Positions 2,231-47,528 of a stretch of DNA of 64,000 bases are shown here, in pieces. Origin of the DNA: an archaeon. GTDB lineage: Archaea > B1Sed10-29 > JAJSAI01. Below the pieces are notes generated by a model. That model worked only from the letters and a program-made list of their open reading frames with translations. It was not told where the DNA came from and did not search any database. Numbering within the stretch: the first letter of the stretch is position 1; the number at the start of each line of letters is the position of its first letter. The stretch spans positions 23,265 to 87,264 of the forward strand of contig JAJSAI010000019.1 of NCBI GenBank assembly GCA_024274695.1, read 5' to 3'. Position numbers and translations under genes: made by a program.

Positions 2231-2260
2231 AATTTAAAGGAGTGTGTGATATAATTCCGC

Positions 2261-3301: not shown

Positions 3302-3336
3302 AACTTTTTAATTTCTTTTAATTCTTTTGAAGAGAT

Positions 3337-4819: not shown

Positions 4820-4823
4820 AATT

Positions 4824-5654: not shown

Positions 5655-5702
5655 CGCTTATTAACCTCAAAAGATAAATTTATTTAAAACTTTTTTGATT
5701 GC

Positions 5703-7010: not shown

Positions 7011-7066
7011 CAGAACTTAAGTAGGGGGCCAGTGTTTTTAAACTCTCCAGGCTTATTTAGCCTTTA

Positions 7067-8452: not shown

Positions 8453-8458
8453 CCTCTG

Positions 8459-9142: not shown

Positions 9143-9163
9143 ATTAATAAAATTATAAAATTT

Positions 9164-9571: not shown

Positions 9572-9753
9572 CCAAAGGAGTTTTTATTGACAAGACCAAG
9601 TGCATGTACTGCGGAGGGTGCACAGCAGTATGTCCTGTCAACGCCCTCGAACTTAAGGAGACGTACATAGAGTGGGATCCTGAAAAGTGCATATACTGCG
9701 GGGCGTGCGAGAGGTTCTGCCCCGCTGGAGCAATAAAGGTGGTGAGAGAATGA
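9568..9753 (+). CDS. Small 2x[4Fe-4S] ferredoxin, partner of GGR.
   Basis: Two CxxCxxCxxxCP motifs (CMYCGGCTAVCP, CIYCGACERFCP). The stop overlaps the GGR ATG as ATGA at 9750-9753. Confidence 0.75.
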   Translation: MTKGVFIDKTKCMYCGGCTAVCPVNALELKETYIEWDPEKCIYCGACERFCPAGAIKVVRE

Positions 9754-10958
9754 GACAATGGCTTCAGGAAGAGTATGATGTCATAGTCGTCGGGGCCGGG
9801 CCCGCTGGAAGCACTGCCGCGAGAGAGTGCGCTAAACGGGGCCTGAAAACCCTGGTCCTTGAAAAAAGACAGGAGGTAGGAGTCCCGAAAAGGTGCGGGG
9901 AAGGACTAGGAGAAGGCTGGTGCAGGATAGCAGGAATAACCCCTGACCCGAAGTGGGCGAGGTACGAAATGCACGGGGCAGTGCTCTGGTCCCCCTCCGG
10001 CAAAAAAGTGGTGATACCCACGCCCACGAAAGGCTGGATAATAGAAAGAAGAGTCTTCGACAAGTGGCTGGCCGAGAAAGCGGTCATGGCAGGAGCGAGG
10101 ATGATAACCAAGGCAAGAGTCATAGGAGTCATAAAAGAAGAAGACACAGTAAAGGGTGTGATCGTGGAAACCCCTGACGGGGACTTCGAAGTCATGGCAA
10201 AGATAGTGATAGCCGCTGACGGGGTTGACAGCAAGACCGCAAAGTATGCTGGGCTTAACACAGTAAACCCCGCCACCGAAATAGACTCAGGGTACCAGTA
10301 CGAGATGGTCGGTCTCAAGATCCCAGAGCCCACGGACATGATACACCTGTACTTCGGGTGGGACGTTGCCCCCAGGGGATACGTCTGGATATTCCCGAAA
10401 GGACCTGACCACGCGAACGTGGGAATAGGGATAGGCGGGCACATTGACAAGGGAACCGCAAAAGAATACCTTGACAGGTTCATAGAGTCCCATCCCGAAA
10501 TCTTTGAGAACGCTGGGATAGTAGAAGTGAACGCGGGAGGAATCCCTGTAGGCGCTCCCCTGAAAAAACCGTACGCGAACGGCCTGCTCGTGATAGGAGA
10601 CGCCGCGCACATGGTCAACCCCATACACGGCGGAGGAATAGGCACTGGCATGGAAGCAGGAATACTCGCGGCAGAGATAGCTGAAAAAGCAGTGAGGTCC
10701 GGCAATGTTTCAGAAGACGTCCTGAAAGAGTTCGCGGAAAAGTGGTACGAGAAGAGAGGAAACCAGTTGCTCCAGGTGCTCAAGGTCAGGAAGTTCTTCG
10801 AAGACCTCACGGACCAGGACATGGAAAAACTAGCGGACATACTGGACGACAAACAGCTCCTGCTGGACTTCGCGGACGGCAGGAGGACAGCCGCGTTCCT
10901 GAAGTTCCTGGCCAAAGCGCCCAGGATCGCGCTGAAGGCGGCAAAGCACCTCAAGTGA
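9750..10958 (+). CDS. Digeranylgeranylglycerophospholipid (geranylgeranyl) reductase.
   Basis: DVIVVGAGPAGSTAA FAD motif, plus YVWIFPKG and GDAAHMVNP motifs of archaeal GGR. Confidence 0.8.
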   Translation: MRQWLQEEYDVIVVGAGPAGSTAARECAKRGLKTLVLEKRQEVGVPKRCGEGLGEGWCRIAGITPDPKWARYEMHGAVLWSPSGKKVVIPTPTKGWIIERRVFDKWLAEKAVMAGARMITKARVIGVIKEEDTVKGVIVETPDGDFEVMAKIVIAADGVDSKTAKYAGLNTVNPATEIDSGYQYEMVGLKIPEPTDMIHLYFGWDVAPRGYVWIFPKGPDHANVGIGIGGHIDKGTAKEYLDRFIESHPEIFENAGIVEVNAGGIPVGAPLKKPYANGLLVIGDAAHMVNPIHGGGIGTGMEAGILAAEIAEKAVRSGNVSEDVLKEFAEKWYEKRGNQLLQVLKVRKFFEDLTDQDMEKLADILDDKQLLLDFADGRRTAAFLKFLAKAPRIALKAAKHLK

Positions 10959-11006
10959 AACCCAAAAACCCTCCTTTTATAATCTTCTCCTGAGTCTATT
11001 ACCAGG

Positions 11007-11936
11007 ATGAAGACAAGACCTGTCCTAACGATAGCACTGATCCTTCTCACGCTGGGCACCTACTTCGCCTTCAGTAACGCGTACCTGTACATCCGCCAAG
11101 ACAGGCTGCTTGCTCTGGCGTTCTCCTGGCACAACGTCTTCCCTGGAATAATCACGTACATGTTCGCTCACATAGGACTAAAGCACCTGTTCGGCAACAT
11201 GCTCCTCCTCCTTCTGGTAGGAGCAATCTGCGAGGAAAAACTCAGGAAAAAAGACTATCTTGCGATATACTTTGCCTCGGGGGCGGCGGGAGCTGTGCTG
11301 TTCTCGGCAATAAACCCTAACGTCGCGCTGGCAGGAGCCAGCGCATGCATCGCGGGCCTTATGGTTCCTGCAATGATAATAAACACGCGGCGGTTCGTGC
11401 TGGGAATGATCCTGGTTGCGGTTTTCTCCACGACAGTCATGATGCCGGTCCTGACAGTATTCTCAGAATCCTTGCACCAGAAGACGGTTAAGGAATACAC
11501 TGTCCTGAAACAGGAGTACGAGAACGTAACAAAAGAAAAGCAAGAGCTTCAGACAATAATACTGGAGCTGAACAAGACCGAAGAAAAGGTTAGGGAAAAG
11601 CTTGAGAAGGGAGAGATAACGGAAAGAGAGTATATGATTATAATCCAGAACGTGAGCTTGCAAAGGAACGCCACGCTGGCCAAGCTCGCTGAAAAAGAAC
11701 AGGAAGAGAAAAAGGTCAGTGAAGGGGTGAACAAGACCCTTGAGCTCAAGGAAAACCTTGAGCAGGGGATAGAAAGAGAAAAAAGGATGGTCACCAGCGT
11801 GCTGGTGCACGCTCTCGGGTCGGTGGTTGGTGCAACATACCTGCTGTTGTTCAGGAGGGACATCCTGTACGACGCTGTCTTCGAATGGAAGAACGCTGCA
11901 TGGAGGTTGAAAAAACGCTTAGCACGATCTTCTTGA
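11007..11936 (+). CDS. Rhomboid-family intramembrane serine protease with a roughly 130-aa sequon-rich coiled-coil insertion before the last TM.
   Basis: FAHIGLKHLFGNMLLL signature, GASA(C) active-site region, and HALGSVVG His-helix. The insert carries 5 N-x-S/T sequons. Confidence 0.5.
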   Translation: MKTRPVLTIALILLTLGTYFAFSNAYLYIRQDRLLALAFSWHNVFPGIITYMFAHIGLKHLFGNMLLLLLVGAICEEKLRKKDYLAIYFASGAAGAVLFSAINPNVALAGASACIAGLMVPAMIINTRRFVLGMILVAVFSTTVMMPVLTVFSESLHQKTVKEYTVLKQEYENVTKEKQELQTIILELNKTEEKVREKLEKGEITEREYMIIIQNVSLQRNATLAKLAEKEQEEKKVSEGVNKTLELKENLEQGIEREKRMVTSVLVHALGSVVGATYLLLFRRDILYDAVFEWKNAAWRLKKRLARSS

Positions 11937-22230: not shown

Positions 22231-24516
22231 ATGAGCGCTCTCGCCTACACGGTCCTCGCGCTACTGGCTGTTAACAGCCTGTTCTCTGTTTCGGACTACT
22301 ACGCGCGGGTCACGACCCTGAAGACTCCTGAAAACATTCCTGCTGCTGTCATGCAGTACTCCATGCCCGGGAAAGAGTACTACCTCTCCTCCCTTAGGAC
22401 CGCGTGGGAGAAGGCAGCTGACGCCAAGAGAGAAGCGGGAAACATGTTAGAAGTGTACATAAAGGAATCTCTTTCTAACCTCGCCTTTTCCAGCTACTGC
22501 CGGTCCAAGCTCTCCGAGGTATACGGTTATGCCGGGTCAGCGTTCTACGCGACGGTCTCGCTCTTGGAAAGGGACGCCGCGGTCCTGAGGGACGCGGGCG
22601 TGGAAAACCCCAAGTACTCGGGCAGGGCCAGGCCAGTGTATCTCAGCCTGCTCCAGGCGGTCAGCGCGGTAGAGCATCCTGACAACCTCTCCTCGTCAGA
22701 ATCGTCCCGCAGGATAAGGGAAGGGCTGAAGGCAGGAAACTCAGACTACTTCAACGCGCTCGTAGGATACCCTGACGGTCTCTTCAGGGTAATGCTTGAC
22801 GAGCACAGGATGTTCCTGCTGGCCCTTGACTACCTTGACGCTGAGTACAAACAAGCGCTAGCAGAAGTGGAGTACAGGAACAGGCTACTGTCCTACAGGG
22901 CGAGAGAGTACGAGGCCAACAGGCTGGACGAGGTGGCGTGGAACAGGATCAGGCTAAGGGGAGGGATACTGTCCGGGGAAAGCTCTCCGGAGAACCCTGC
23001 CAGAGCATACCAGACCGCTAGGGAGTGGTCCCTGAAAACAACCGCTGTCACTGGCTCTGCTAGGGCGCTGTACTCAGCCGGAAGAAAGGCTGACGCCATA
23101 GTCCTGCTGCACGATCACTGCCTGGAAACAGAAAAGGTGATACGCGCTCTTGAGGGCGCGGTGGAAGCGGCCCGCGCGGTTGAAGAACAACTGCACCGCA
23201 GAGCGGTTAAGGCGTTTTCAAGCGCTTCAAGAGAGAGCGCGGGGTACTCGCTGGCGGAAAAAGCCTGTTCAGAGCAGAGTCCTCTTCTGGGAGAAAGCAT
23301 CCTCCTCTTACAGAAGTGCATCCGCTTGTCCGAGAAGACAAGAGAACCTGACCCTTCCTCGCTTGAGGGGGAAGAACTGGCGGATAACCTTTCAAGACTT
23401 GCCTGGGACAAGTACTACCAGCTGGAACAGTACCTTGACGATCCTGTCTTCCTGGACAGGATCAGGACAAGCCTTCAGCTGTTGGACGCGTCGTCGGACG
23501 ATCCGCTGCAGGCCGCTGCAGGATACCAGAAGCTCGTGCTGGAAATGGATGAGAAGCGCGCGGGGCTTGAGTCAGAGTATTCCGTGGTGCTGGAGAGCAG
23601 GGTGCTGGATTGCGGGAAGGAACAGGAAGTGAACGCCACAGTGTACTTCTCAGGCCCGCGCACCAGCGTTTACAGGGCAAGGGTCTTTCTCCCTGAACGA
23701 GTAGCGTTCCCTGACGGGTCAAAAAGCAAGATACTGTCTTCAGAAAACCAGTCCCTGAAGATCCCTGTGCACGTGTCCCCTGAATGCGTCAAGGTTTCTG
23801 AAGAACAGGTGAAGGCTGACGATACAAGGGTGTACTACGAGGAAGAGTGGAAGGTGAGATCCCCTCTGCCCGTGAGGCTTGCTGACGGGACGGTGACAGC
23901 GTCCCTCGCGAAGGTGCTCGTGTCACGCCCCTCGTGGCTGGTGGTGGGCAGGAAAGAACAGGGCAGCATGCTCGTGCTCACAGTCTTCAACCCAGGAGAC
24001 ACTCTGAAGAACGTGGTCCTGTCAGCAGACACTACCCGGGAAGTGGAGGAGTGCAGCTCCTGCATACTCAGGCAGGGGAAAGTTCTTTTCTTCATTCCAT
24101 TAGTCCGCGGAGGAGAGAAAAAAGTGCTGGAGGCCAGGCTCTCGGGGAACAGGACAAACGCCCTTTCCGAAAGTGTTCCCGAAGAACAGGAGGACTACAA
24201 GAACACTCTGCTGCTAGGACCCTTGAACACGAGCGGTTACAACGCCTTCATAGAGTCACGCGTGTTCGCTCCAGCGGCAGACGCTGGGAGCGAGGGCACG
24301 AACATCACTCTACAGGGTGAGGGCAAGAAAGACATTGTCCAGAGAAGAAACGTGTTGAAACCAGTCTCCCTGGAGGCACGTGAGGCCAGAGAACCTGACG
24401 AGCGTTCTAGCGGCAACTCCTACAAGTACTACGTGATACCCCTTGGTTTTGCTGTGCTTTCGTTCATGCTCCTGAAGAGGAAGCCCGCGAGGAAGAAGAT
24501 TGGGAGGGTCATATGA
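22231..24516 (+). CDS. Large secreted/surface protein (761 aa) with an N-terminal signal peptide and a C-terminal PGF-CTERM-like TM plus basic tail.
   Basis: N-terminal MSALAYTVLALLAVNSLFS. C-terminal YYVIPLGFAVLSFMLLKRKPARKK. Confidence 0.5.
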   Translation: MSALAYTVLALLAVNSLFSVSDYYARVTTLKTPENIPAAVMQYSMPGKEYYLSSLRTAWEKAADAKREAGNMLEVYIKESLSNLAFSSYCRSKLSEVYGYAGSAFYATVSLLERDAAVLRDAGVENPKYSGRARPVYLSLLQAVSAVEHPDNLSSSESSRRIREGLKAGNSDYFNALVGYPDGLFRVMLDEHRMFLLALDYLDAEYKQALAEVEYRNRLLSYRAREYEANRLDEVAWNRIRLRGGILSGESSPENPARAYQTAREWSLKTTAVTGSARALYSAGRKADAIVLLHDHCLETEKVIRALEGAVEAARAVEEQLHRRAVKAFSSASRESAGYSLAEKACSEQSPLLGESILLLQKCIRLSEKTREPDPSSLEGEELADNLSRLAWDKYYQLEQYLDDPVFLDRIRTSLQLLDASSDDPLQAAAGYQKLVLEMDEKRAGLESEYSVVLESRVLDCGKEQEVNATVYFSGPRTSVYRARVFLPERVAFPDGSKSKILSSENQSLKIPVHVSPECVKVSEEQVKADDTRVYYEEEWKVRSPLPVRLADGTVTASLAKVLVSRPSWLVVGRKEQGSMLVLTVFNPGDTLKNVVLSADTTREVEECSSCILRQGKVLFFIPLVRGGEKKVLEARLSGNRTNALSESVPEEQEDYKNTLLLGPLNTSGYNAFIESRVFAPAADAGSEGTNITLQGEGKKDIVQRRNVLKPVSLEAREAREPDERSSGNSYKYYVIPLGFAVLSFMLLKRKPARKKIGRVI

Positions 24517-24716
24517 ACACCATAGTGCAAGTGCTCGGGGAGAACGTGCTGACTGTTCTCTGGGACGAGGAAAGAAAAGAGTACGCCCCTATTTCTAACG
24601 GCAGGAGAAGAGTTTTTATGGACAAGCAGGAGCTCCAGAGAACGCTTGCAGAGTCATGTGGTGAGGAGGCGGCGGAGATTGTTTTACATTATCTTGAAGA
24701 CAGTGGTGTACTTTAG
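24513..24716 (+). CDS. Small 67-aa protein translationally coupled to the surface protein by an ATGA overlap.
   Basis: The upstream stop TGA overlaps this ORF's ATG. Ends in TAG. Confidence 0.3.
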   Translation: MNTIVQVLGENVLTVLWDEERKEYAPISNGRRRVFMDKQELQRTLAESCGEEAAEIVLHYLEDSGVL

Positions 24717-24790
24717 GGTGATGGGCCTCAGTCCTCCTGTCAGGCTGGTGAGAATTAATCTCTTAAACCTGCCTCTCCTTTAGAGTAGAT

Positions 24791-25168
24791 ATGAAAGGTC
24801 TTACTCCCGTGGTCTCGGTTGTTCTCATAATAGGGATGATGGTCGTCGCCTCCGTGGCGTTCTACTACTGGATAATGCCGTACACCGGAAAAAAGGCGAC
24901 CCCTGAAACAACGTACTACTCCATGCATGTTGAATCGTGCAACCGGAGCCACATAACAGTCCGGAACACAGGGCTCCCGAGGTTCCATGACGCGAACGTT
25001 TCAGTCTATGATTCAACAGGGTCCAAGGTCGCCTGGTTTTATATTGACAGCCTGAACACGAGCGAGTCAAAATCCTTCCAGCTGAACCAGTCGCTCGAGC
25101 TCGGGCAAGAGTACACCCTCAGGTACGAGAAGATCCCGGGAGTCACGTTCGTGTGCAACGAGTACTAG
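24791..25168 (+). CDS. Archaeal type IV pilin-like protein with a class III signal peptide.
   Basis: MKG|LTPVVSVVLIIGMMVVASVAFYYWI fits the [KR]G-hydrophobic prepilin peptidase cleavage pattern. Several sequons follow. Confidence 0.45.
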   Translation: MKGLTPVVSVVLIIGMMVVASVAFYYWIMPYTGKKATPETTYYSMHVESCNRSHITVRNTGLPRFHDANVSVYDSTGSKVAWFYIDSLNTSESKSFQLNQSLELGQEYTLRYEKIPGVTFVCNEY

Positions 25169-26665: not shown

Positions 26666-26741
26666 TAGACTCTTCTTCCTCTCGGGTGGTATAAAAAAGC
26701 AGGGGCGAAAAGGTTAAAAAACACCCGGCCGGAATTCTTCA

Positions 26742-26766
26742 AGGGTGTTGTTTTTTGTTCAAGAAG
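26742..26766 (+). repeat. AGGGTGTTGTTTTTTGTTCAAGAAG, copy B of the nucS-flanking repeat.
   Basis: See copy A. Confidence 0.4.
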
Positions 26767-26769
26767 AGC

Positions 26770-27225
26770 ATGTCCTTTCCGGAGAAAGAGCTTTTCATCC
26801 GAATGTGTCTGCCCGCGTATTCTCTCACCGAGGACGTCAGGGGAAGGCTCCTCTACTACCTGAAGAAAAGAAGCGTCCCGGACAATCTCCTGCGCGAGGC
26901 GTTCCCTGAGGACTATGACAGGATAATGTCGACAGTGATGCTGGAGAAGGGCTTCTTTTCCCTTAAGCCAAGGCTTGACCTGGTGATCAAGTACTTTCTG
27001 GAATACCACAACAGGGAAACGCCTTGCAAGGTTGAGGAAGGAAGGGTTGTTGGGTTCAGAGCGGAAAGAAAGGGAGGAGAGAACACCCTCATCGCAAGAG
27101 TCGCCCTTAAGTCAGGTCGCACGGTTAACGCGTCAACCAAGCTGGCTCCCGGGCTTGTTGTTAGAATAAACTTGAACGACAGGGTTTTCGTGCATAACAA
27201 GAAGGTCTGCCACGTGTTAGAATGA
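26770..27225 (+). CDS. Hypothetical protein translationally coupled to hycI (ATGA overlap). Candidate hydrogenase accessory factor.
   Basis: The ORF is listed from a TTG at 26755, but the first ATG is at 26770. No similarity to HycH or HypC is visible from sequence. Confidence 0.4.
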   Translation: MSFPEKELFIRMCLPAYSLTEDVRGRLLYYLKKRSVPDNLLREAFPEDYDRIMSTVMLEKGFFSLKPRLDLVIKYFLEYHNRETPCKVEEGRVVGFRAERKGGENTLIARVALKSGRTVNASTKLAPGLVVRINLNDRVFVHNKKVCHVLE

Positions 27226-27653
27226 ACAGGATAGCCGTCGCGTCCCTCGGCAACCCCCTGAGAAGGGATGATGGGATTACAGAGGTTGCCTGCAGGATGA
27301 TGGAAGAGAGAAACCGTTTTAAGGCAGACTACTACTACGGGGATCCCTTGAACTACCTGGGCAGGCTCGTTTCTTACGATCTCGTGTTCCTTGTGGACGC
27401 CGTGCTCTCAGAGGACCCTCCTGGGAGGGTCAAGCTCCTGGACATTGACTCTGTTTCAGGCCCTGGCCTTTCAACACACTCAGCGTCACTGGACCTCGTT
27501 AGAAGAATGCTTTCGGGAAAAAAAGTTTTCCTGATAGGCGTGACAGTCAGGGACACGGGATACGGGACCGGCCTGAGCCCGGGTGTGGATCCTCAGAGGA
27601 TCGCTGAAGAAATAGAGAGGATCATACTCGCCCGCGCTTCCGTCAGGCATTGA
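27222..27653 (+). CDS. hycI: [NiFe]-hydrogenase maturation endopeptidase (HycI-like).
   Basis: ASLGNPLRRDDGIT, VFLVDAV, PG, and STHSASLD match the GN/DDG/DAV/H pattern of HycI/HybD proteases. Confidence 0.75.
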   Translation: MNRIAVASLGNPLRRDDGITEVACRMMEERNRFKADYYYGDPLNYLGRLVSYDLVFLVDAVLSEDPPGRVKLLDIDSVSGPGLSTHSASLDLVRRMLSGKKVFLIGVTVRDTGYGTGLSPGVDPQRIAEEIERIILARASVRH

Positions 27654-27663
27654 TCTCATTTCT

Positions 27664-28062
27664 TCATTTTACCAGGTTCTTCAAATCCTCTTTCCTGGTG
27701 CTGGAGTAGTCGTACTCTGTGGAGAACGCTATCGCCTTAGGTCTCGCGGGGCACACGTCCCGGCACAGCCCGCACAGTATGCACTTTCCCATGTCAAAGT
27801 CTATCCTCCCCTTCTCGTGGAAGACTATCGCGTTAACAGGACAGTTCCTCTCGCACAGCCTGCATCCTATGCACCGTTTGGAATAGTATACTATTCTTCC
27901 CCTAAACCTCTGGTAGGGTTTCTTCTTCTGCTCGGGATAGTTCTCTGTCACCGGCCTCCTGAAAAGCCACGCGAGCACCTCTGTTTTCAAGCCCATGAGC
28001 CCACCCACAGTACCCTCATCAAGTCTATTACCGCGACAAAGAACGCTGCCAGCACGTACCAC
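27664..28062 (-). CDS. Group-4 hydrogenase 2x[4Fe-4S] ferredoxin subunit (NuoI/EchF-like).
   Basis: CIGCRLCERNCP and CILCGLCRDVCP. Overlaps the upstream membrane subunit. Confidence 0.75.
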   Translation of the reverse strand: MVRAGSVLCRGNRLDEGTVGGLMGLKTEVLAWLFRRPVTENYPEQKKKPYQRFRGRIVYYSKRCIGCRLCERNCPVNAIVFHEKGRIDFDMGKCILCGLCRDVCPARPKAIAFSTEYDYSSTRKEDLKNLVK

Positions 28063-28844
28063 ACGGTGGTGTGCAGCGTAAACCTTGGAGTGGTCGCGTC
28101 TGAATACGCCATCGCCATGAACAGGATCACGAAACTCACTATCCAGAAGAGCAAGTTTCCTCCTGCGAACAGGCTTGACAGCAGGCTTATGAAAAAGAAC
28201 CTTTTCAGCATCTCCCCGAGGTCCAGGAAGAACAGGGACCTTCCGGAGTACTCCGTGCTAACCCCTGGAAGGATCTCGCTTTCCGCGGCCCCGGTGTCGA
28301 ACTGGGTTACCTTGCTTTCCACGAGGGCCACGGCTATCAGGGCAACGGCTGACGGGACCAGTCCCAGAATGCTCAGGTCCTTTATTCCTGCAAGCGTGAT
28401 CGTGCTAGAGTACACGACGAACGAGATGATCGCGGCGGCGAGGGCCGTCTCGTATATTATCATGAGCCTCATTTCCCTCATGCTGGCGAGCATGCCGTAG
28501 GGGGAGTCAGAGCTTATTCCCGCGAGCACGTAAAAAGCGCTTGAGAGCACGGTCACGTACAATAGGAAAATGAAGTCGTACGGGAAAGAAATCACCTGGA
28601 ACGGGACCAGCATCAGTCCCACGAAAAGGGTGGTGCAGTACATGAATGGCGAGATCATGAAGAACCAGTCGTTCTTGGTCGGGATCCTCTTCTTTGCCCA
28701 GAGTTTCCTGAGATCGTAAAAAGGTTGTACTACGGGAGGGCCTCTCCTGCTCTGCATTCTCGCGATCACCTTGCGGTACACCCCGTCAGCGAGGACCGCG
28801 AGGAAAGGGGATGCAACCCAGAGCACCAGGTTCAGCCAGGGCAC
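27987..28844 (-). CDS. Group-4 hydrogenase membrane subunit (NuoH/EchB-like).
   Basis: 285 aa with about 8 TM and a NuoH-like profile. 13-nt overlap with the large subunit. Confidence 0.7.
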   Translation of the reverse strand: MPWLNLVLWVASPFLAVLADGVYRKVIARMQSRRGPPVVQPFYDLRKLWAKKRIPTKNDWFFMISPFMYCTTLFVGLMLVPFQVISFPYDFIFLLYVTVLSSAFYVLAGISSDSPYGMLASMREMRLMIIYETALAAAIISFVVYSSTITLAGIKDLSILGLVPSAVALIAVALVESKVTQFDTGAAESEILPGVSTEYSGRSLFFLDLGEMLKRFFFISLLSSLFAGGNLLFWIVSFVILFMAMAYSDATTPRFTLHTTVWYVLAAFFVAVIDLMRVLWVGSWA

Positions 28845-29989
28845 GAGTACTTCCTCCTGAACTCTTTTTCCCTGAGCTCTTCAACCCTGCCGTTCTTTTC
28901 TACAAGGACTCTTTCAAGGCAGGAGAAGCAGGGGTCAAGGGACGCTACTATGACGGGCACGTCTCCTACGACCATGCCTGGAAGCAGTTCTTCAAGGATC
29001 TTCATGTAAGAAAAGCTGGGTGTTCTTATCTTCGCTCTCTCCACCCTGTTGTTCTTGAACCTTAGGTAGTAGAAGAGCTCTCCTCTCGGCGCTTCCACCC
29101 GGGCGTGACCCTCTCCCTCAACCCTGGAAAGAGAGTGGGGAGGGATCTTCTCGTCCGGGAGTCCTGAGAGCACGCGTTCTACTATCCTCGCGGATTCCAT
29201 GACCTCCGTGAGCCTGACCTTCAGCCTTTCCAGCGCGTCCCCCCTCTTCCCGGCCGCCATTTCAAAGTCTATCCTGGAGTACCAGTCGTACGGGTCTATC
29301 TTACGGGTGTCTATCCTCACTCCTGACGCCCGGGCTATGGGGCCTGTCAGCCCCCATTCCAAGGCCATGCTCTTCGGGATCGTTCCAACGTTCTTGAGCC
29401 TTGACACGACAACTTCTTCCTTCATGCAGTCGTTGTAGTAATCTCTGGTTTTCCTTGCCACGCTCCGAACCTGCTGTAGTATGAACTCGGGATCCTCTTC
29501 TTCCATGTCGTACCGCAGTGTTCTTATCTTGTTAATGTTATGATGGACCCTGCCCCCGGTTATTTTTTCAAAGCAGTCAAGCACCTTTTCTCTTTCCCTC
29601 CAGAAGTAGTTGAAAAGGGTTTCAAGGCCTATCTCGTGCATCATGAACCCTGCCCAGAGAAGGTGGCTCTGCATCCTCTCAAGCTCGAACAGCACTGTCC
29701 GGATGGCCTTCACTCTTTCAGGAGCATCGTACCCGAGAATGTTTTCCACCGTGCGCACGTACGCCCTCTCGTGAGTAATACTGCATATACCGCATACCCT
29801 TGAAGCAACGTACAGGGCCTGGTCAGGGTTTTTCCCCTCCAGCAGGTACTCTATCCCCCTGTGAGTGTACCCCGTTACCATCCTGACCTTCTGGACCTCC
29901 TCTCCCTCAAGGCAGACCTTGAGGAGTATGGGCTCTTTTATCGCAGGGCTCTGTGGCCCGACGGGCATTACGAAGTCATGCACTCTCAT
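28832..29989 (-). CDS. [NiFe]-hydrogenase large (catalytic) subunit, group 4.
   Basis: N-terminal Ni-binding RVCGICSITHE and C-terminal DPCFSCLER. As in E. coli HycE, the maturation protease would cleave after the Arg, removing about a 25-aa tail. The Cys pairs are present, so this is a true hydrogenase rather than NuoD or Ehr. Confidence 0.85.
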   Translation of the reverse strand: MRVHDFVMPVGPQSPAIKEPILLKVCLEGEEVQKVRMVTGYTHRGIEYLLEGKNPDQALYVASRVCGICSITHERAYVRTVENILGYDAPERVKAIRTVLFELERMQSHLLWAGFMMHEIGLETLFNYFWREREKVLDCFEKITGGRVHHNINKIRTLRYDMEEEDPEFILQQVRSVARKTRDYYNDCMKEEVVVSRLKNVGTIPKSMALEWGLTGPIARASGVRIDTRKIDPYDWYSRIDFEMAAGKRGDALERLKVRLTEVMESARIVERVLSGLPDEKIPPHSLSRVEGEGHARVEAPRGELFYYLRFKNNRVERAKIRTPSFSYMKILEELLPGMVVGDVPVIVASLDPCFSCLERVLVEKNGRVEELREKEFRRKYSCPG

Positions 29990-30293
29990 CCCTCCTCATG
30001 GGCGGCTTGCCCTTCCAGTCCTCGGGCAGGAAGAGTTTCAGGTGCAGGTTCTTGTTGCCCTCGAACTCAACCCCGTAAAAGTCGTGGATCTCCCTCTCAT
30101 AGAAGTCCGCGGGAGGAAACTCTTCCGCCAGGCTTTCCACGACCGGGGACTCTTTAGGCACCCTCAGTTCCTTGAAGAAAATGTTGTGATCCTTCCCGTC
30201 AAAGTAGTACCTCAGCCTGAACTCCTCCCCCATGTCGTCGCACACTATCGCGATAAGCCTGTTATCCTTTAGAAGCTCTTTCAAGAACCTCAA
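29976..30293 (-). CDS. NuoC/EchD-like subunit.
   Basis: FPPADFYEREIHDFYGVEFEGN matches the NuoC 30-kDa subunit signature. Confidence 0.7.
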   Translation of the reverse strand: MRFLKELLKDNRLIAIVCDDMGEEFRLRYYFDGKDHNIFFKELRVPKESPVVESLAEEFPPADFYEREIHDFYGVEFEGNKNLHLKLFLPEDWKGKPPMRRDESA

Positions 30294-30678
30294 CCCCCTT
30301 TAGTATGCCGTCTATTACAGCTTCCGGTCGCGGCGGGCATCCTGGGACGTACACGTCCACGGGTATTATCCTGTCCAATGGCCCCGCGTGATTGTACGAT
30401 TCCGCGAAAGGCCCGCCTGACACCGCGCACGCTCCCACAGCCACCACCACCTTCGGGCTTGCCATCTGGTCGTACACCGTTCTTATCCTGTCAGCGTTTT
30501 TCTTGTTTACCATCCCCTCCACCACGAGGATGTCAGCATTCCTCGGGCTGTGCTTTATCACTATCCCGAGCCTTTCCACGTCGTACCTGGGCGTGGCCAC
30601 GGCGAGCACTTCAAGATTGCACCCGTTACAGCCAGCCCCGTGGAACACGAACACCCACGGAGATTTTTTGAAAGTCAT
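30262..30678 (-). CDS. [NiFe]-hydrogenase small subunit (NuoB/EchC-like, proximal 4Fe-4S cluster).
   Basis: GCNGC, GACAVSGGP and CPPRPE cluster ligands. The true start is MTFKK at 30676-30678, and it overlaps the upstream microprotein stop as ATGA. Confidence 0.85.
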   Translation of the reverse strand: MTFKKSPWVFVFHGAGCNGCNLEVLAVATPRYDVERLGIVIKHSPRNADILVVEGMVNKKNADRIRTVYDQMASPKVVVAVGACAVSGGPFAESYNHAGPLDRIIPVDVYVPGCPPRPEAVIDGILKGVEVLERASKG

Positions 30679-30830
30679 ACGAGCATCACCGAGATGGAGA
30701 GTACTGCCAGCGAGATGAGCACTGCCGCGAGCTCCCATGGCTCGAAGAACGCTTCATAGCTCTCCGGAAGCACTCTGCCAACATCCCTCTCCCCTCCGAG
30801 GTATACTGTGACCTTCTCTTTTCCGTTCAT
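30675..30830 (-). CDS. 51-aa single-TM microprotein inside the hydrogenase operon. It is not in the ORF track as a separate gene.
   Basis: My own translation gives MNGKEKVTVYLGGERDVGRVLPESYEAFFEPWELAAVLISLAVLSISVMLV. Its ATG overlaps the upstream gene's TGA, and its TGA overlaps the small-subunit ATG (ATGA at both ends). Confidence 0.45.
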   Translation of the reverse strand: MNGKEKVTVYLGGERDVGRVLPESYEAFFEPWELAAVLISLAVLSISVMLV

Positions 30831-31693
30831 GTCATCAGCCCCAGGATGGTCTCCTGCAGCCAGGGGAACACGCCTAAGAGTATGACTGCTGCCGCCAGCG
30901 CGCCCGCGAACGCGAGGCGCGCTCTGTCTTCCTTTTTCCGTCTCCCCGGGCCTGCCAGCAGGTAGTACGCCACCTTGTAGTACATTATGAACAGCATCAT
31001 GGCAAGGAATATTCCAAGAAGTGTTATAAGCGGGTCCATCGCGAACCCTTTCGTGAAAAGAATCCACTCAGAGACGAAGATGTTGAACCCGGGAAGTCCT
31101 GCCAGGGAAAGGCAGGCTATTACAGTGAACAGGTCCGCCCACCTGCTCACGAACCAGCTTCCCATAAGGTCGCTCAGCCTCTCCTTCCTACGCGCGACCA
31201 TTCCAATTCCCAGGAACAAGAGGGATCCTGCGATCGTGTAGTCGAACACTTGTATCGTCTTCAAGAGGCCAGGGTCTGCTGACGCGAACGCAACACTCAG
31301 ATCAAGGGCCACGAAACCTATCTGCGCGAGGCTGCTTGCCGCCAGGAACCTGTACATCCGCGGCTCAAGGATACCGTACACCGCAAGCCCTCCTATGCCG
31401 AGAGCGAACAGTATCGCGAGCTGCTTTGACCCTGGGAGCAGCCCGTGCTCGTAGTACCAGAGGAGAGAGCTTGACACCAGTACAGCGGAGAGCATGTTAG
31501 CGTGCGCGAAAACAGAATAAGATCTTATTCTCGGGGACGCTATCACGATCCCCAGCGCCAGGACTCCTGCAGGAGAGTCCATCAGGAGCAGGGCCGCAGC
31601 AGAAGAGGCGAGTATCACTACTGCCTCCTTTTTCCCGCGCGCCAGCAGGAGGCTTGCGACCGTGACCAGTCCTGTGAGGAACGTCCAGAGCAT
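30827..31693 (-). CDS. Truncated NuoN/MrpD-like antiporter-type membrane subunit (C-terminal half only).
   Basis: SLAQIGFVALDLS resembles the SIAHMG..LLG signature. LSLAGLPGFNIFVSEW resembles the LSLAGIPPLAGF motif of NuoL/M/N. At 288 aa it is about half of a normal antiporter subunit. Confidence 0.55.
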   Translation of the reverse strand: MLWTFLTGLVTVASLLLARGKKEAVVILASSAAALLLMDSPAGVLALGIVIASPRIRSYSVFAHANMLSAVLVSSSLLWYYEHGLLPGSKQLAILFALGIGGLAVYGILEPRMYRFLAASSLAQIGFVALDLSVAFASADPGLLKTIQVFDYTIAGSLLFLGIGMVARRKERLSDLMGSWFVSRWADLFTVIACLSLAGLPGFNIFVSEWILFTKGFAMDPLITLLGIFLAMMLFIMYYKVAYYLLAGPGRRKKEDRARLAFAGALAAAVILLGVFPWLQETILGLMT

Positions 31694-31745
31694 GCTATAA
31701 GAGGAAGGGCAGGCTGGTTAATAATGCTTTAGGGTTTTTCTGGTC

Positions 31746-44147: not shown

Positions 44148-46748
44148 TTAAACAAAGTCTGCAAGGCTCTTCTGCTTCTGTGCTTCCGCCCTCTTCTCCA
44201 TTTCCTCGAGCTCGAAGAAGCTTTTCACGTCATTCTCTATCAGAATGAGCCTTTGCTTCAGGTACTCTGAGAGGTGATACTTGTTCGCGATGTTCTTTGA
44301 CACGTCAAGGTACTTTACTATGCCTCCCTTGCTCACGGTCAGCACGAGCTTGCCCCCGCATTTGTAACACTTGCCGGACAAGGGCGCTCTCCTGTAGACC
44401 GTGTTGCAGTCAACGCACCTGAGGCCCTGCTGTCCAAAGGCCCTAAGGTTTCCCATCATGTCCCGCATGAAATGGAAGTTTATTACCCTGCTCGCAAGGT
44501 CCCTTTCGTCCACCGCGAGAATCTTTTCCCCGAGGTCAAGCTGTTTTTCAACTTTTTCCGCCATTGTCTTGAGGGTTGTGTACGCTGACCTCACGGGCCC
44601 CTCGTCTATCCTGTGGGTCTCGTGAGTGTACCCGAACCCGTGATACTGTTCCGGCGTTTCAAGCCTGTCCTTTACGGTTTCTATTTTCACGTCCGACGGG
44701 TTCAGGTTGTTGCACGCTGCCTCGTAGTACTCCAGGGGGTATTCTGAGACCACGTCCATCTCGTGGACCTGGTCGTCCACTTCCCGAGGGTCTATTTTTG
44801 TTGTGAGCACCATGGCCGCGTCCATGGTGCCCCCTCTCGAGCTCGGGAGGTACTTCTTGCTGAAGTTCAGCAGTGCATCCAGCAAGAGCATGAACGCGTC
44901 CTCGTCGCCGTCACAGTCCCTCCTGCACGCGGCGTGCATGTACGGGTGCGCGTAGGTTCCCCTGGCCCTGTGGAACCCGATGATCCTGCCGAGAACTCCA
45001 ACAGAAATGTGCGGCGCGAGGCAGATGACCAGATGTCCCACGAGATCTTCTGGTTTTTCCGCGTTGTAGTATCTTGGCAGTCCGTAGAATTTTTCCAGCA
45101 GATCGTCAATGAACTTTGCTGTGGCCAGCACGTACTCTGCCGAGTCTTCTGGTATTACAATGTCCTGTACGAACAGCTCGCACACCTGTTCCGGGTCTGT
45201 GAGTGGGTTGCCGTCTTTGTCGTACAAGTACCCGAGCTCTCTTGCTTTTTCAACACTCAATCCTATCTCTCTTGGCTTGAAGTGGGTTAACGGCAGGTTC
45301 GTCGCGTCGAACCGTACCGTCCCGTCCCTGAACACGGTGACTCCGTGCTTTGCTCTAAGCATTCCCTTTTCCACGGGCTCGAAGAACTTGCCAGAGTTTA
45401 TCAGGCCTTCTACGGCCTTTGTTTTTTCAGGGGTTTTCTCGCCAAGCGTTTCCTCCGCTTTCTTGAGAAGGGTTTTCAGGTCTAGCGCTATGTGGGCGTA
45501 GGGCAGCGCTCTTCCTCCGCAGTGCTTGCACACCTCTGTTTTTCCTTTTTTTCCGCACTTGGTGCACGTGTAAACCACTTCTGTGCGTGCCCCGCAGTCG
45601 TGGCAGTAGTAGCTTAGCGTTTCCTTGTCGCACTTGGGGCACTTGAGCCGCACGGCTTCCACTGATACGACTCCCTTTTCAGCGGCCTTTTTCAGGAGCC
45701 TTGTTTTTCCTCCGCTGTACTTTATTGGGAACAGCAGGTGTGGCGGCGGGCTCATTTTCCTGGGTTTTGCTTTTTCAGGCCTGCCCATCCTGGCTCCGAC
45801 GAACGTTCCTCCTTTGTCCATGACCCTGAAACCGCACGCCTTGCTGATGGCTTCCAGGACATCATCTTCTTCCTCAAGAGCCCTTTCAAGGTCTTCCACG
45901 TGCTCAAGGCACAGTGTTTCTATCAGAGGGCCTGCTTCTTCTATTATTACCTTCCCTTCCCTGAGCTTGTGAGGAACCCCTATCCTTTCAAGGATCCTTT
46001 TTTCTTCTGAGACCCTCACCTCGAGCACCCTGCTATCTTCTCCTGCTATTCCTTTCACCGTGCTAGTGCTTCCGGTGGCAAGCCATCTCGCGAGCTTCGC
46101 GAGCTCCTGTTTTTCAAGCAGGTTATAGTAGTACAAGTACCTGGGATGCATTGGAAGCCCTTTCCACGCGAGCTCTACTGCCTGTTCAGAGCTCACGTTC
46201 CACGGGTCCATCCTCGCTCCATTTTCCTCGCATATCTTCTGCCACCATTCCTCACAGAATCCTGGCTTCACGAGAGGGTGGTTAGCTTTCAGGAAGTCCC
46301 CGTGGCTCACGAGAAGATCGCCCAAGAAGAGTATTTCAACTATGTCGTCCTTTACCTCCATCGCCCTCGGCACGCTGTCAACTCTTATGACGTCACCGTT
46401 CCTCAGGAGGACGGTCGGCCCTTCTATGGTGCTGACCGGGACCGTCACGCACCCTTTCCCAGGCCTTTCGAGCTTGAGCTGGGTTCCTATGGCCATGAAC
46501 TCGTTCACGAGGTACATGGTCGCAGGGTCCACTCCCTTCGCGTTCAGGCCCGTGTTCCTGCTCCTGCCGTACCTTAGTCTGAACCCTCCTGGCCTGCTCG
46601 GGTAAGCGAATATGGGCCTGCCGCCCACTATGTCCGAGAGGTACTTGGTCACGGGCTTTATTTCCTTTTTCTCTCCTGTTTTTTTGGTTATCCTGACTAT
46701 AGCCTCTATCCAGTCCCACCCGAGGTCATGTTTCTTGGAGTACTTCAA
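44148..46748 (-). CDS. DNA polymerase D large subunit (DP2), C-terminal 866-aa portion downstream of an in-frame TAG.
   Basis: Cys-rich zinc-finger cluster CPKCDKE...CHDCG...CTKCGKKG...CKHCG, typical of DP2. Reading across the TAG gives GGMALVIA*GIAQKAAKLLKY, which is consistent with the conserved motif spanning this junction in other DP2 proteins as recalled from memory. Confidence 0.8.
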   Translation of the reverse strand: MKYSKKHDLGWDWIEAIVRITKKTGEKKEIKPVTKYLSDIVGGRPIFAYPSRPGGFRLRYGRSRNTGLNAKGVDPATMYLVNEFMAIGTQLKLERPGKGCVTVPVSTIEGPTVLLRNGDVIRVDSVPRAMEVKDDIVEILFLGDLLVSHGDFLKANHPLVKPGFCEEWWQKICEENGARMDPWNVSSEQAVELAWKGLPMHPRYLYYYNLLEKQELAKLARWLATGSTSTVKGIAGEDSRVLEVRVSEEKRILERIGVPHKLREGKVIIEEAGPLIETLCLEHVEDLERALEEEDDVLEAISKACGFRVMDKGGTFVGARMGRPEKAKPRKMSPPPHLLFPIKYSGGKTRLLKKAAEKGVVSVEAVRLKCPKCDKETLSYYCHDCGARTEVVYTCTKCGKKGKTEVCKHCGGRALPYAHIALDLKTLLKKAEETLGEKTPEKTKAVEGLINSGKFFEPVEKGMLRAKHGVTVFRDGTVRFDATNLPLTHFKPREIGLSVEKARELGYLYDKDGNPLTDPEQVCELFVQDIVIPEDSAEYVLATAKFIDDLLEKFYGLPRYYNAEKPEDLVGHLVICLAPHISVGVLGRIIGFHRARGTYAHPYMHAACRRDCDGDEDAFMLLLDALLNFSKKYLPSSRGGTMDAAMVLTTKIDPREVDDQVHEMDVVSEYPLEYYEAACNNLNPSDVKIETVKDRLETPEQYHGFGYTHETHRIDEGPVRSAYTTLKTMAEKVEKQLDLGEKILAVDERDLASRVINFHFMRDMMGNLRAFGQQGLRCVDCNTVYRRAPLSGKCYKCGGKLVLTVSKGGIVKYLDVSKNIANKYHLSEYLKQRLILIENDVKSFFELEEMEKRAEAQKQKSLADFV

Positions 46749-46775
46749 GAGCTTGGCCGCTTTCTGGGCTATCCC

Positions 46776-47528
46776 CTATGCGATGACGAGAGCCATCCCT
46801 CCCCTGATCCGGTTCGTTTCTATCCTCGGAAGGTTCTTGTATATGCTGACCTCCAGTTCTGAGGTGGGAGTGCCGCTCACGCACACCGGACAGTTCCTCA
46901 CGATGTGCCTGACATCATCCTCTGGGGGATGGTACTGCAGTCTAGAAACGAGGTTGTGGTATATTTCTATCTCTTCAACGTACCTTTCAACCTCTTCTTT
47001 TGAGGGCCTGTACTCCTGCAGCCCCATCTTCTTCCTCGTGTAGTCGGCCAGGATGACCGAGAGCGCGGCGGCTGTTCCTCCAGCGGACCGGATCGGTCCC
47101 GCGTAGTACACTTCCAGGCACTGGGTCCCGTCAGGATTGTCCAGGATCCTTGTTCCCGCGATCCCTTCTGTTGCGGCGGCTGGGACAGCTTCAGTGATTA
47201 TCGCCACCCCTGTTCTTATGCACTGTTCTGCCAGCTCCTCCCTGGAGCTGAACTCTCCGAACTTCCCCTCAACTATCTCTTCTATTATCTTGAACGTCAT
47301 CTTTTCTCTGTCCATTTCCTTGAGGAGTTCTCTTATCCTCTCTGCAACTCCCTTTGGCCCCACCAGCCCTTCCACTCTTGCGGCGAGGTCCGCGGCGGGA
47401 GGGATCTCAACCTCTGTTGTCACGTCCTTCCCTTTGGACCTGGCTAGCTTTGCCAGAGAGTAGCATTCTTCTGTCCTTTCACGCATGTGCTGCCAGTACC
47501 ACTCTGTTCTCTCGCGCTTTAGGCTCAT
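46776..47528 (-). CDS. DNA polymerase D large subunit (DP2), N-terminal 250-aa portion ending at an in-frame TAG.
   Basis: EVEIPPAADLAARVEGLVGPKGVAERIRELL and YYAGPIRSAGGTAAALSVILADY match the known DP2 N-terminus. Its ATG directly abuts the DP1 stop. Confidence 0.8.
   Translation of the reverse strand: MSLKRERTEWYWQHMRERTEECYSLAKLARSKGKDVTTEVEIPPAADLAARVEGLVGPKGVAERIRELLKEMDREKMTFKIIEEIVEGKFGEFSSREELAEQCIRTGVAIITEAVPAAATEGIAGTRILDNPDGTQCLEVYYAGPIRSAGGTAAALSVILADYTRKKMGLQEYRPSKEEVERYVEEIEIYHNLVSRLQYHPPEDDVRHIVRNCPVCVSGTPTSELEVSIYKNLPRIETNRIRGGMALVIA

Follow-up and report, generated by a model that had tools for sequence, protein, structure and literature searches.

For complex I, Mbh, Mbs, Mrp and FHL, the central open question is how ion movement in the membrane arm is powered by redox chemistry in the peripheral arm. 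To our knowledge, every member of these families studied so far has one or more complete antiporter-like subunits, each with two half-channels. The archaeal DNA analyzed here (a stretch of 64 kb, hereafter the window) encodes a seven-gene hydrogenase operon whose antiporter-like subunit is only half-size. This raises the question of whether such a complex is genuine, and whether it may still move an ion.

The seven genes lie on the minus strand, from 31693 to 27664 in the list of open reading frames (Table 1), and encode in order a 288-aa antiporter-like subunit, a 51-aa protein and NuoB-, NuoC-, NuoD-, NuoH- and NuoI-like subunits. Each gene overlaps its neighbor (by 4, 4, 32, 14, 13 and 10 nt in succession). 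All nine ORFs, the plus-strand pair included, occur where the initial annotation had placed them, as do the overlapping NuoC-, NuoH- and NuoI-like genes in its tightly packed operon. The 32-nt overlap between the small-subunit and NuoC-like genes recurs in a related locus (L001), in which the NuoI-like product has 110 aa and a 10-nt overlap. In the window the NuoI-like ORF reaches a GTG at 28062; relatives start at the ATG at 27996. The operon starts 52 nt past an aminoacyl-tRNA synthetase gene. Direct reading of the sequence locates an A/T-rich box (AAAGCATTATTAA) about 26–38 nt ahead of the ATG of the 288-aa gene, which may be an archaeal promoter giving a near-leaderless transcript. The hycI gene and its 156-aa partner had been described as divergent; they lie on the plus strand and are convergent, with 10 nt separating their end from the NuoI-like stop codon. 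In most related loci the HycI gene is likewise convergent, just downstream of the operon.

Table 1. Features of the hydrogenase locus (positions in the window).
Feature	Position	Strand	Remarks
Antiporter-like subunit, 288 aa, truncated, MbhH/HycC/NuoM-like	30827..31693	-	TM9-14 conserved; four degenerate N-terminal helices before
Microprotein, 51 aa	30675..30830	-	mbhI position; N-terminal motif segment, one C-terminal TM helix
NuoB/MbhJ-like small subunit, 138 aa	30262..30678	-	PF01058 4e-34; NF005012 155.8 bits, cut-off 116
NuoC/MbhK-like subunit, 105 aa, TTG start	29976..30293	-	PF00329 1.8e-20
[NiFe] large subunit, NuoD/MbhL-like, 385 aa	28832..29989	-	PF00346 and PF00374
NuoH/MbhM/HycD-like membrane subunit, 285 aa	27987..28844	-	PF00146 2e-47
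NuoI/MbhN-like 2x[4Fe-4S] subunit, 110 aa	27664..27996	-	Fer4 families and TIGR01971
HycI-type maturation endopeptidase, 143 aa	27222..27653	+	TIGR00072 65.6 bits, cut-off 47.45; PF01750
Accessory protein, 151/156 aa	26770..27225 (longer start 26755)	+	Helical N-terminal domain; putative HypC-like beta-rich C-terminal domain
Intergenic region upstream of the first operon gene, 52 nt	31694..31745	-	Sequence read directly

On its sequence motifs, the operon encodes a real membrane-bound group 4 [NiFe] hydrogenase: the Ni-binding Cys pairs, a NuoD-type sequence, a short NuoB, a NuoI with 2x[4Fe-4S] and a NuoH-type subunit are all present, and all Ni and Fe-S ligands are intact. The large subunit carries both cysteine pairs first read in it (RVCGICSITHE and DPCFSCLER). 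Its L1 and L2 motifs are kept in all related loci, as is a 25-residue C-terminal tail after DPCFSCLER, and its closest solved counterpart in a PDB search is MbhL (6cfw_L, 4e-66). The proximal-cluster ligands of the small subunit are complete, again as first noted (GCNGC, GACAVSGG and GCPP); the loci share its CxxC, C and CPP motifs. The NuoI-like product contains CIGCRLCERNCP and CILCGLCRDVCP. In the NuoH-like subunit, nine residues (R24, R33, D44, K47, E132, D183, E190, E198 and R254) show no variation among 29 DPANN sequences and also occur in NuoH/HycD; E132 is the equivalent of NuoH E157, and the acidic residues of the TM5-6 loop are kept. Every match of the operon subunits to subunit-specific (equivalog) NCBIfam models falls below the cut-off.

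The 288-aa protein is the C-terminal half of the antiporter fold, as the initial annotation had proposed. It matches a single Pfam family, Proton_antipo_M (PF00361), in its C-terminal part alone (profile positions 163-288 of 294), and is homologous to TM9-14 only of full-length antiporter-like subunits; the alignment is with the C-terminal part of these proteins and not end to end with a small Mbh/Mrp subunit. Its gene is the sole PF00361 gene present, and an antiporter-like subunit with 14 TM helices and two pseudo-repeats is absent from the operon, the window and the flanks. Within the family there is little or no variation at E110, Q124, D131, Q148, N151/Y152, K170, E209 and K240, E209 being the TM12 glutamate, which the truncated subunit retains. 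The N-terminal half-channel residues (TM5 Glu, TM7 Lys and the LHxWxPxA signature) are missing. Furthermore, the first four helices are poorly conserved, and a sister family with a 216-aa antiporter-like subunit lacks three of them.

The 51-aa ORF is joined by ATGA to both neighbors, as first described, if the small subunit starts at its second ATG (30678), a start also used by relatives. It occurs at 29/29 readable junctions between antiporter-like and small-subunit genes, that is, in every related locus that can be read. The product has a basic N-terminus, followed by the motif Y-x-G-G-E...P...F, in which Y10, G13, E14, P22 and F28 are (near-)invariant, and one C-terminal hydrophobic TM helix. 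Its homologues (68, of 43-77 aa) include no fusions, and a dN/dS of about 0.1 (range 0.07-0.44) places it under purifying selection. The label "unannotated" does not hold, because an identical 51-aa product, from an NCBI contig, is already in the protein collection, albeit without a name. No Pfam family matches the microprotein, hhalign gives a probability of 0.8% against E. coli NuoA, and a profile search of the PDB finds no 6cfw chain and no ND3 at E<=10, with no detectable similarity to any solved chain, 6cfw_I included. Because sequence similarity to these is lacking, the suggested likeness to MbhI is one of gene position and topology only: as in the MbhI/NuoA type, the gene lies between the antiporter-like and NuoB-like genes, and a predicted cytoplasmic conserved loop precedes the TM helix.

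The operon is kept in about 30 DPANN archaeal species. In 27 complete independent loci, hosted by Micrarchaeota, Aenigmatarchaeota, Woesearchaeota, Nanoarchaeota and Iainarchaeota, the genes follow one and the same order. This recurrence is far beyond chance, and the seven-gene hydrogenase is a clade-wide DPANN trait, unlike a single-genome feature. The upstream neighbors vary by locus (AsnRS/AspRS, Na/Ca exchanger, TsaD, thioredoxin) while the operon itself is invariant; genes for POR/2-oxoacid:ferredoxin oxidoreductases adjoin it in loci L006 and L037. Truncation by assembly or frameshift, together with a chance 51-aa ORF, is the default suspicion for a metagenome-derived contig. It is refuted here to the point of being virtually impossible: the 288-aa protein has 32 homologues (259-306 aa) from independent assemblies and sources, and a search of 1.84 billion representatives yields 18 clusters below E 1e-30, with complete members of 288-317 aa. 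The 29 junctions and the dN/dS of the microprotein add to this, and nothing spoke in favor of the suspicion after testing.

The HycI-type protein scores above the TIGR00072 cut-off and keeps all three metal-ligand positions (equivalents of E. coli HycI D16, D62 and H90); its presumed substrate, the large subunit, has the 25-residue tail. The 156-aa ORF is ATGA-coupled to hycI, as noted initially. A sequence search with this protein returns close-clade homologues only; the wider family comprises the proteins of loci L019, L025, L036 and L033. The absence of HycH similarity is confirmed (hhalign probability 0.1%; no Pfam HycH at E<=10). However, the accompanying statement that there is no HypC similarity is true by eye only, as profile comparison finds a weak, consistent HypC-like C-terminal domain: hhalign aligns the family with HypC at 96% probability (E 3e-9), placing C86 on HypC Cys2, the L019 member matches Pfam HupF_HypC below threshold (E 0.002), and the top PDB match of the family is HypC, weakly (E 0.08). 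The C-terminal ~65 residues can be aligned along the entire HypC OB-fold, with the Cys and D-x-V-x-V-H, and the gene sits with hycI beside the hydrogenase, where other DPANN loci put a canonical hypC. In contrast to HypC, whose cysteine is residue 2, the aligned Cys is internal (residue 86 of 151, no start codon before it) and follows a helical domain of ~85 residues. Because two loci carry both the canonical and the long form, the latter is presumably a HypC paralogue with a different role. The proposal of an unusually minimal, energy-converting-type hydrogenase with undescribed accessory subunits is partly supported from sequence: the half-size antiporter-like subunit and the conserved small subunit sustain it, whereas the 156-aa protein has a putative HypC-like domain. 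For a member of the respiratory complex I family, the complex appears remarkably small. We found no published description of the subunit make-up of the operon; surveys do note DPANN group 4 hydrogenases, at the large-subunit level (PMC8407114, PMC8561730).

Among known systems, the 14-subunit Mbh of Pyrococcus furiosus (group 4d, PDB 6CFW) has the same gene order, mbhH-I-J-K-L-M-N. In both, the NuoC- and NuoD-like subunits are separate, and the gene between those for the antiporter-like and small subunits codes for a small membrane protein. In contrast to Mbh, the DPANN operon lacks MbhA-G (the Mrp-like Na+/H+ module), its antiporter-like subunit has 288 instead of 505-510 aa, the TM12 residue is Glu rather than Lys, and the microprotein has one TM helix in ~50 residues, while MbhI has TMH1-2 and a lateral helix (PMC8165549). 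MbhH turns its TM12 side toward MbhM (PMC8679088), and the DPANN subunit retains this half. MbhH K409 on TM12 faces MbhM E141, and MbhI provides a loop, a clamping helix and TM helices at the MbhH-MbhM interface (PMC8679088, PMC8165549).

The E. coli formate hydrogenlyase Hyc (group 4a, PDB 7Z0T) shares the TM12 Glu within the same motif (FVSEW vs. FAGEW), the conserved residues of HycD are found in the DPANN NuoH-like subunit, and the 156-aa gene overlaps the hycI start as hycH does. However, HycC is full length (608 aa), HycE is a NuoC-NuoD fusion, and HycB/FdhF have no DPANN counterpart. As far as we know, ion pumping by Hyc is unsettled. Ech is, like the DPANN operon, a small ferredoxin-dependent complex, EchA-F comprising one antiporter-like, one NuoH-like and four peripheral-type proteins. 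It differs in having EchD and a full-length EchA (~640 aa, compared with 288 aa in DPANN). We know of no separately encoded Ech microprotein at an mbhI-like position, and of no cleavable C-terminal tail on the Ech large subunit, in contrast to the 25-residue tail and dedicated protease of DPANN. None of the operon products gives an Ech-specific NCBIfam match; a work cited in PMC8561730 assigns a Micrarchaeota hydrogenase to this six-subunit type (group 4e). Eha/Ehb (groups 4h/4i) have 17-20 subunits with polyferredoxins, as opposed to seven genes and no polyferredoxin. Their large and small subunits are of a similar small size to those of DPANN (385 and 138 aa). EhaH-I-J are treated as ion-translocating membrane genes (PMC9635834). 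A small protein beside a membrane subunit may be a parallel with EhaH-I-J. As far as is known, metazoan ND2 has lost just TM1-3 and still contains the two pseudo-repeats with their lysines; the DPANN protein, in contrast, keeps recognizable second-repeat residues only.

Taken together, the product of the operon is probably an Mbh-like group 4 [NiFe] hydrogenase of a DPANN type, with seven subunits, that is ferredoxin-dependent and H2-evolving, lacks the Mrp Na+ module and possibly moves one ion. Reduced ferredoxin, for example from 2-oxoacid:ferredoxin oxidoreductases, would give electrons to the NuoI-like subunit, and these would cross three [4Fe-4S] clusters to the Ni-Fe site of the 385-aa subunit, where protons become H2. 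The peripheral module would rest on the NuoH-like subunit, with the truncated antiporter-like subunit beside it. The 51-aa protein most likely takes the role of MbhI or of the ND3 loop: with its Y-x-G-G-E segment it would extend to the interface beneath the proximal cluster, and with its TM helix it would clamp together the NuoH-like and half antiporter-like subunits. An ion might then pass from NuoH-like E132 (the E-channel glutamate) to E209 and out beside the microprotein helix. The HycI-type protease would cleave the conserved tail off the large subunit as it matures, and this subunit may have the 156-aa protein as a HypC-related chaperone.

On balance, it is somewhat more probable than not that H2 evolution is still coupled to export of one H+ (or Na+). 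Against coupling stand the single pseudo-repeat without a canonical second half-channel and the TM12 Glu, which lies opposite another Glu, an arrangement shared with E. coli Hyc. The complex would otherwise be a non-pumping, membrane-anchored ferredoxin:H+ oxidoreductase, purely an electron sink for fermentation, in which the half subunit and microprotein, as structural remnants, merely anchor or stabilize the NuoH-like subunit. The lost half-channel residues, the poorly conserved first helices and their shedding in the sister family fit this account, as does the published picture of DPANN as fermenters with reduced genomes and hydrogenases pared down to the minimum (PMC11216029). Surveys also report that an ATP synthase is missing from many Aenigmarchaeota (PMC8407114), which makes a pump less necessary. 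However, buried polar and charged residues are strongly kept in TM10-13 (D131, E209, K240, Q124, Q148, N151), as are the E-channel glutamate and loop of the NuoH-like subunit, all of them unexpected for a mere anchor, and the membrane genes are retained across phylum-level divergence in genomes that shed dispensable genes. The absence of pumping is rather unlikely.

Alternatively, the short subunit might be incomplete by itself, with the missing antiporter half or an Mrp-like module supplied to the complex from another part of the genome. Other members of the superfamily do have split antiporter-like subunits, and inspection covered 64 kb of the host genome and 6-8 kb flanks of related loci. 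This is nevertheless improbable: no second antiporter-like, NuoA-, NuoJ-, NuoK- or MrpB-G-like ORF occurs in the window or any flank, and the genes upstream differ among loci while the operon stays invariant. Operation in the uptake direction, with an ion gradient driving ferredoxin reduction by H2 as in methanogen Eha/Ehb, is very improbable. Group 4 enzymes are reversible in principle and the 385- and 138-aa subunits have Eha/Ehb-like sizes, but the neighbors are ferredoxin-producing oxidoreductases and not ferredoxin-consuming CO2-fixation genes, and the nearest solved relative, MbhL, is H2-evolving. Moreover, the DPANN archaea with the operon have been described as fermenters with little means to build a gradient (PMC8407114, PMC11216029).

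A more far-reaching version of the H2-evolving, coupled reading can be put forward only tentatively: one antiporter pseudo-repeat (TM9-13), a NuoH-like subunit and a 50-residue clamp would form a working redox-driven ion pump, either a relic of an ancestor of antiporter-like subunits that predates their duplication or the smallest unit capable of coupling, reached by extreme reduction. This natural complex, found across phyla, has retained, of the two repeats, just the one that faces the NuoH-like subunit, together with a 50-residue partner, and therefore offers a direct test of the elements needed for coupling; its size of ~150 kDa should make the assembly amenable to cryo-EM and mutagenesis. 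Neither the 51-aa protein nor the long HypC-like protein belongs to a named family, and routine annotation leaves both as "hypothetical". Ultraminimal [FeFe] hydrogenases have already been shown to be active in DPANN (PMC11216029), a parallel to the seven-gene operon. The operon bears on the question of an ancestral hydrogenase module less complex than Ech or Mbh, and on reductant disposal, and possibly membrane energization, in genome-reduced DPANN archaea.

The hydrogenase operon comprises seven minus-strand genes extending from 31693 to 27664, as read from ORF listing and translation (see table). Each gene overlaps the next, by 4, 4, 32, 14, 13, and 10 nt in order, the first two overlaps being ATGA, and every family assignment is backed by both Pfam and NCBIfam. 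The large subunit carries the motifs RVCGICSITHE and DPCFSCLER, the small subunit GCNGC, GACAVSGG, and GCPP, and the NuoI-like protein two CxxCxxCxxxCP motifs. Scans of the window for bacterial promoters and terminators, tRNAs, and Rfam families returned nothing relevant.

Positions of the hydrogenase operon, its maturation genes and other features of the window
Feature	Position	Strand	Remarks
Antiporter-like protein	30827-31693	-	288 aa
Microprotein	30675-30830	-	51 aa
NuoB-like small subunit	30262-30678	-	138 aa
NuoC-like protein	29976-30293	-	105 aa; TTG start
[NiFe] large subunit	28832-29989	-	385 aa
Large-subunit tail	28832-28909	-	25 residues after DPCFSCLER
NuoH-like protein	27987-28844	-	285 aa
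NuoI-like protein	27664-27996	-	110 aa; 2x[4Fe-4S]
HycI-type protease	27222-27653	+	143 aa; TIGR00072 cut-off passed
151/156-aa ORF	26770 or 26755 to 27225	+	ATGA-coupled to HycI-type protease gene
Inverted repeat and T-run	26719-26757	+	nucS/156-aa gene intergenic region
Low-GC stretch	2001-6000
Low-GC stretch ORF	2261-3301		FAD-binding/lycopene-cyclase-like
Low-GC stretch ORF	3337-3987
Low-GC stretch ORF	3974-4819
Low-GC stretch ORF	4824-5654
761-aa ORF and following genes	22231-25168	+
DP2, both ORFs	44148-47528	-
DP2 N-terminal domain	46776-47528	-	250 aa
DP2 central and catalytic domains	44148-46748	-	866 aa

A GTDB scan covering one genome per species recovers 30 loci related to the operon, in MAGs labelled Micrarchaeota, Aenigmatarchaeota, Woesearchaeota, Nanoarchaeota, and Iainarchaeum and in unclassified archaea, three of which were deposited as "uncultured Methanosarcinales"; the closest species-level relative is a "Candidatus Micrarchaeota" MAG (71% identity). 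The 27 complete loci share an identical order (antiporter-like, NuoB, NuoC, NuoD, NuoH, NuoI; phmmer, all six-frame ORFs), the others being broken off by contig ends. All large subunits keep both Ni-binding motifs and all small subunits the cluster ligands, and neither the window nor any locus flank contains a second antiporter-like ORF or a NuoA-, NuoJ-, or NuoK-like one. In roughly half of the loci the HycI gene is convergent and directly downstream, and in most others it lies within about 1 kb; the upstream neighbors vary. The operon is a clade-wide DPANN trait. It encodes a group 4-type [NiFe] hydrogenase that is complete and intact and has a dedicated protease, and selection has conserved it in many DPANN lineages. 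In a sister family (locus L037, 727-kb contig, 7001-11042), the antiporter-like subunit has 216 aa (approximately TM8-14) and is followed by the same genes; convergent downstream are a canonical hypC and a gene for a 304-aa membrane protein without assignment, and hycI and POR lie 4 kb upstream. At 3500-5647 of the related locus L029, the NuoB-like small subunit is a 716-aa ORF in which some 570 intein-like residues are inserted inside the first Cys motif (...NCSGC/ITGDTEV...HN/CNGC...). In the Aenigmarchaeota-like locus L014 (9557-10601), the NuoH-like and NuoI-like genes lie about 1 kb apart instead of overlapping as in the other loci.

The antiporter-like subunit, initially annotated as half-size, is indeed so: only TM9-14 are homologous to known subunits, and this form is conserved in independent relatives. 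Pfam Proton_antipo_M is matched only at profile positions 163-288 of 294, and the match to NCBIfam families of ~500 aa is confined to their residues ~290-490. In profile comparisons, residues 103-279 align with E. coli NuoM 293-484 (88% probability) and residues 83-275 with HycC 252-474; the aligned part corresponds to TM9-14, and E209 falls exactly on NuoM E407, the TM12 charge. A word-indexed search of 5.8 billion proteins gives 32 homologs, the complete ones 259-306 aa long and the named ones from Aenigmarchaeota and Woesearchaeota. In an HMM search of 1.84 billion cluster representatives, only 18 clusters fall below E 1e-30 (complete ones 288-317 aa), followed by a second group of 215-250 aa whose match begins near profile position 70 and reaches the profile end; ordinary subunits of 450-650 aa rank after these and are matched via their C-terminal halves. 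By this pattern of matches, the four N-terminal helices still stand in the places preceding TM9, although they carry no signature in their sequence. The representatives of 216-300 aa inspected outside the family are DPANN proteins or fragments on short contigs. Truncation or an assembly artefact is ruled out for the 288-aa gene by the homologs, the conserved loci, and the cluster search.

This family has neither the TM7 signature (LHxWxPxA...K) nor a conserved TM5-type Glu, and its invariant or nearly invariant residues are E110, Q124, D131 (TM10), Q148, N151/Y152 (TM11), K170, E209 (TM12), and K240 (TM13). The TM12 Glu sits in the motif FVSEW and is common to HycC (FAGEW) and NuoM, whereas MbhH has a lysine. 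In Mbh, this lysine, K409, faces MbhM E141 across the interface, and the opposite side of MbhH contacts MbhD/E/G and the Mrp-like Na+ module (PMC8679088). The DPANN subunit retains the TM9-14 side; the side it has lost is the would-be contact to a module that these genomes lack. The NuoH-like subunit is invariant in 29 sequences at R24, R33, D44, K47, E132 (equivalent to NuoH E157), D183, E190, E198, and R254, the residues tied to coupling in NuoH/HycD.

The small TM ORF between the antiporter-like and small-subunit genes encodes a genuine subunit that is conserved. Each of the 29 readable junctions has an ORF of 47-58 aa that starts within a few bases of the antiporter-like gene stop and, in most loci, runs up to the small-subunit gene start or comes within a few bases of it. 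G13, E14, P22, and F28 are invariant and Y10 nearly so, in the pattern [basic N-terminus]-Y-x-G-G-E-x-D ... P-K-x-Y-x-x-F-F-x-K-K, after which comes a hydrophobic helix ~20 residues long. Pairwise dN/dS values span 0.07-0.44, most of them lying around 0.1, at dS values that reach saturation. A profile search gathers 68 members (43-77 aa), without fusions or Pfam domains and all "hypothetical protein" or unnamed; the ORF had been considered unannotated, but the identical product is already called on an NCBI contig. In L037 the micro-ORF has 39 aa and keeps LYVGGEK but no TM helix. The gene occupies the position of mbhI in mbhA-N. In Mbh, the MbhI loop is equivalent to the ND3/Nqo7 loop at the MbhL/MbhJ/MbhM junction, its amphipathic helix clamps MbhH, and its TM helices lie at the MbhM/MbhH interface (PMC8165549, PMC8679088). 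Because the microprotein has no meaningful Pfam match, no similarity to any solved chain in a PDB profile search, and none detectable to E. coli NuoA, homology to ND3/MbhI cannot be claimed; NuoA as phmmer query did not find MbhI either. Given its matching position, N-in/C-out topology, and conserved cytoplasmic segment, the microprotein could be a cut-down functional equivalent of MbhI.

The maturation gene pair ends 10 nt from the NuoI-like gene stop codon and is convergent with the operon rather than divergent, the orientation given in the initial annotation; the ATGA coupling of hycI to the 156-aa gene is confirmed by the ORF listing. The HycI-like protein retains equivalents of E. coli HycI D16, D62, and H90. 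The large subunit is the presumed substrate of this protease, and the tail of that subunit is conserved from one DPANN phylum to another (~23-33 residues, ...K-x-G-x-x-E-x-L-x-E-x-E-F-R-R-K-Y-x-C), which is more than expected of a segment merely cleaved off. For the 156-aa protein, the earlier reading of no HycH similarity stands, whereas that of no HypC similarity gives way once its family is extended. An ordinary search finds only close-clade homologs, and the structure model is of poor quality. ORFs of 163-182 aa adjoining the operon in four related loci (L019, L025, L036, L033) share both domains and align with it over its full length (hhalign 78% probability, E 1.7e-5). The extended family matches a HypC alignment with 96% probability (E 3e-9), the close clade alone with just 36%; C86 pairs with the essential Cys2 of HypC, and N-D-x-V-x-V-H with G-D-W-V-L-V-H. 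Pfam HupF_HypC hits one member below threshold (E 0.002), and the top PDB match is HypC, weakly (E 0.08). Since L025 (193-896) and L036 (5263-6119) encode a canonical HypC of 67-72 aa beside the 163-aa long form, just upstream of the operon, the latter is probably a HypC paralog that has an additional helical domain at its N-terminus and an internal Cys, rather than simply the HypC of the lineage. The intergenic region between nucS and the 156-aa gene holds an inverted repeat (AACACCC ... GGGTGTT) and then a T-run, directly before the start of that gene.

Otherwise the window holds ordinary housekeeping genes of archaea (PolD, Cdc6, ThyX, SHMT, aCPSF1, proteasome, SecDF, NucS). One stretch has a GC content of 0.37, against ~0.52-0.56 elsewhere in the window, and may be a horizontally acquired island. 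DP2, the large subunit of DNA polymerase D, is encoded by two adjacent ORFs, through either a natural split or a frameshift. No Pfam family matches the 761-aa ORF, which has a hydrophobic helix with a basic tail at its end; after it come an ORF of 67 aa and a protein of 125 aa that weakly matches archaeal pilin/CARDB, and the whole may be a surface-structure gene set.

The electron donor of the hydrogenase would be ferredoxin, as suggested by an entry subunit of NuoI type, by the affinity to MbhL, and by the POR/2-oxoacid:ferredoxin oxidoreductase genes that adjoin the operon in L006 (another related locus) and L037. The physiological direction would be H2 evolution. Some ion translocation probably persists, through NuoH-like E132 and, in the half subunit, E209/D131/K240. 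As the main rival reading, the complex would be a non-pumping, membrane-anchored electron sink, in keeping with the loss of the first half-channel and with reports that many Aenigmarchaeota lack ATP synthase (PMC8407114); the strong conservation of the buried charges argues against this.

Group 4 hydrogenases are recorded in Aenigmarchaeota on the basis of large-subunit classification (PMC8407114), and PMC8561730 cites a 4e enzyme, likewise by large-subunit classification, in a Micrarchaeota genome. In the full-text literature covered, which is incomplete, neither the truncated antiporter-like subunit nor the microprotein nor the long HypC-like protein was found described, and all three are provisionally regarded as undescribed; a literature search on EhaJ gave no relevant papers. 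By gene order and large subunit the closest system is Mbh, which unlike the DPANN complex has an Mrp module; by membrane-subunit fold and TM12 residue it is Hyc. Group 4 enzymes are expected to have a full-length antiporter-like subunit, which the DPANN complex does not. The complex is of interest mainly as a naturally occurring minimal model of coupling within the complex I superfamily.
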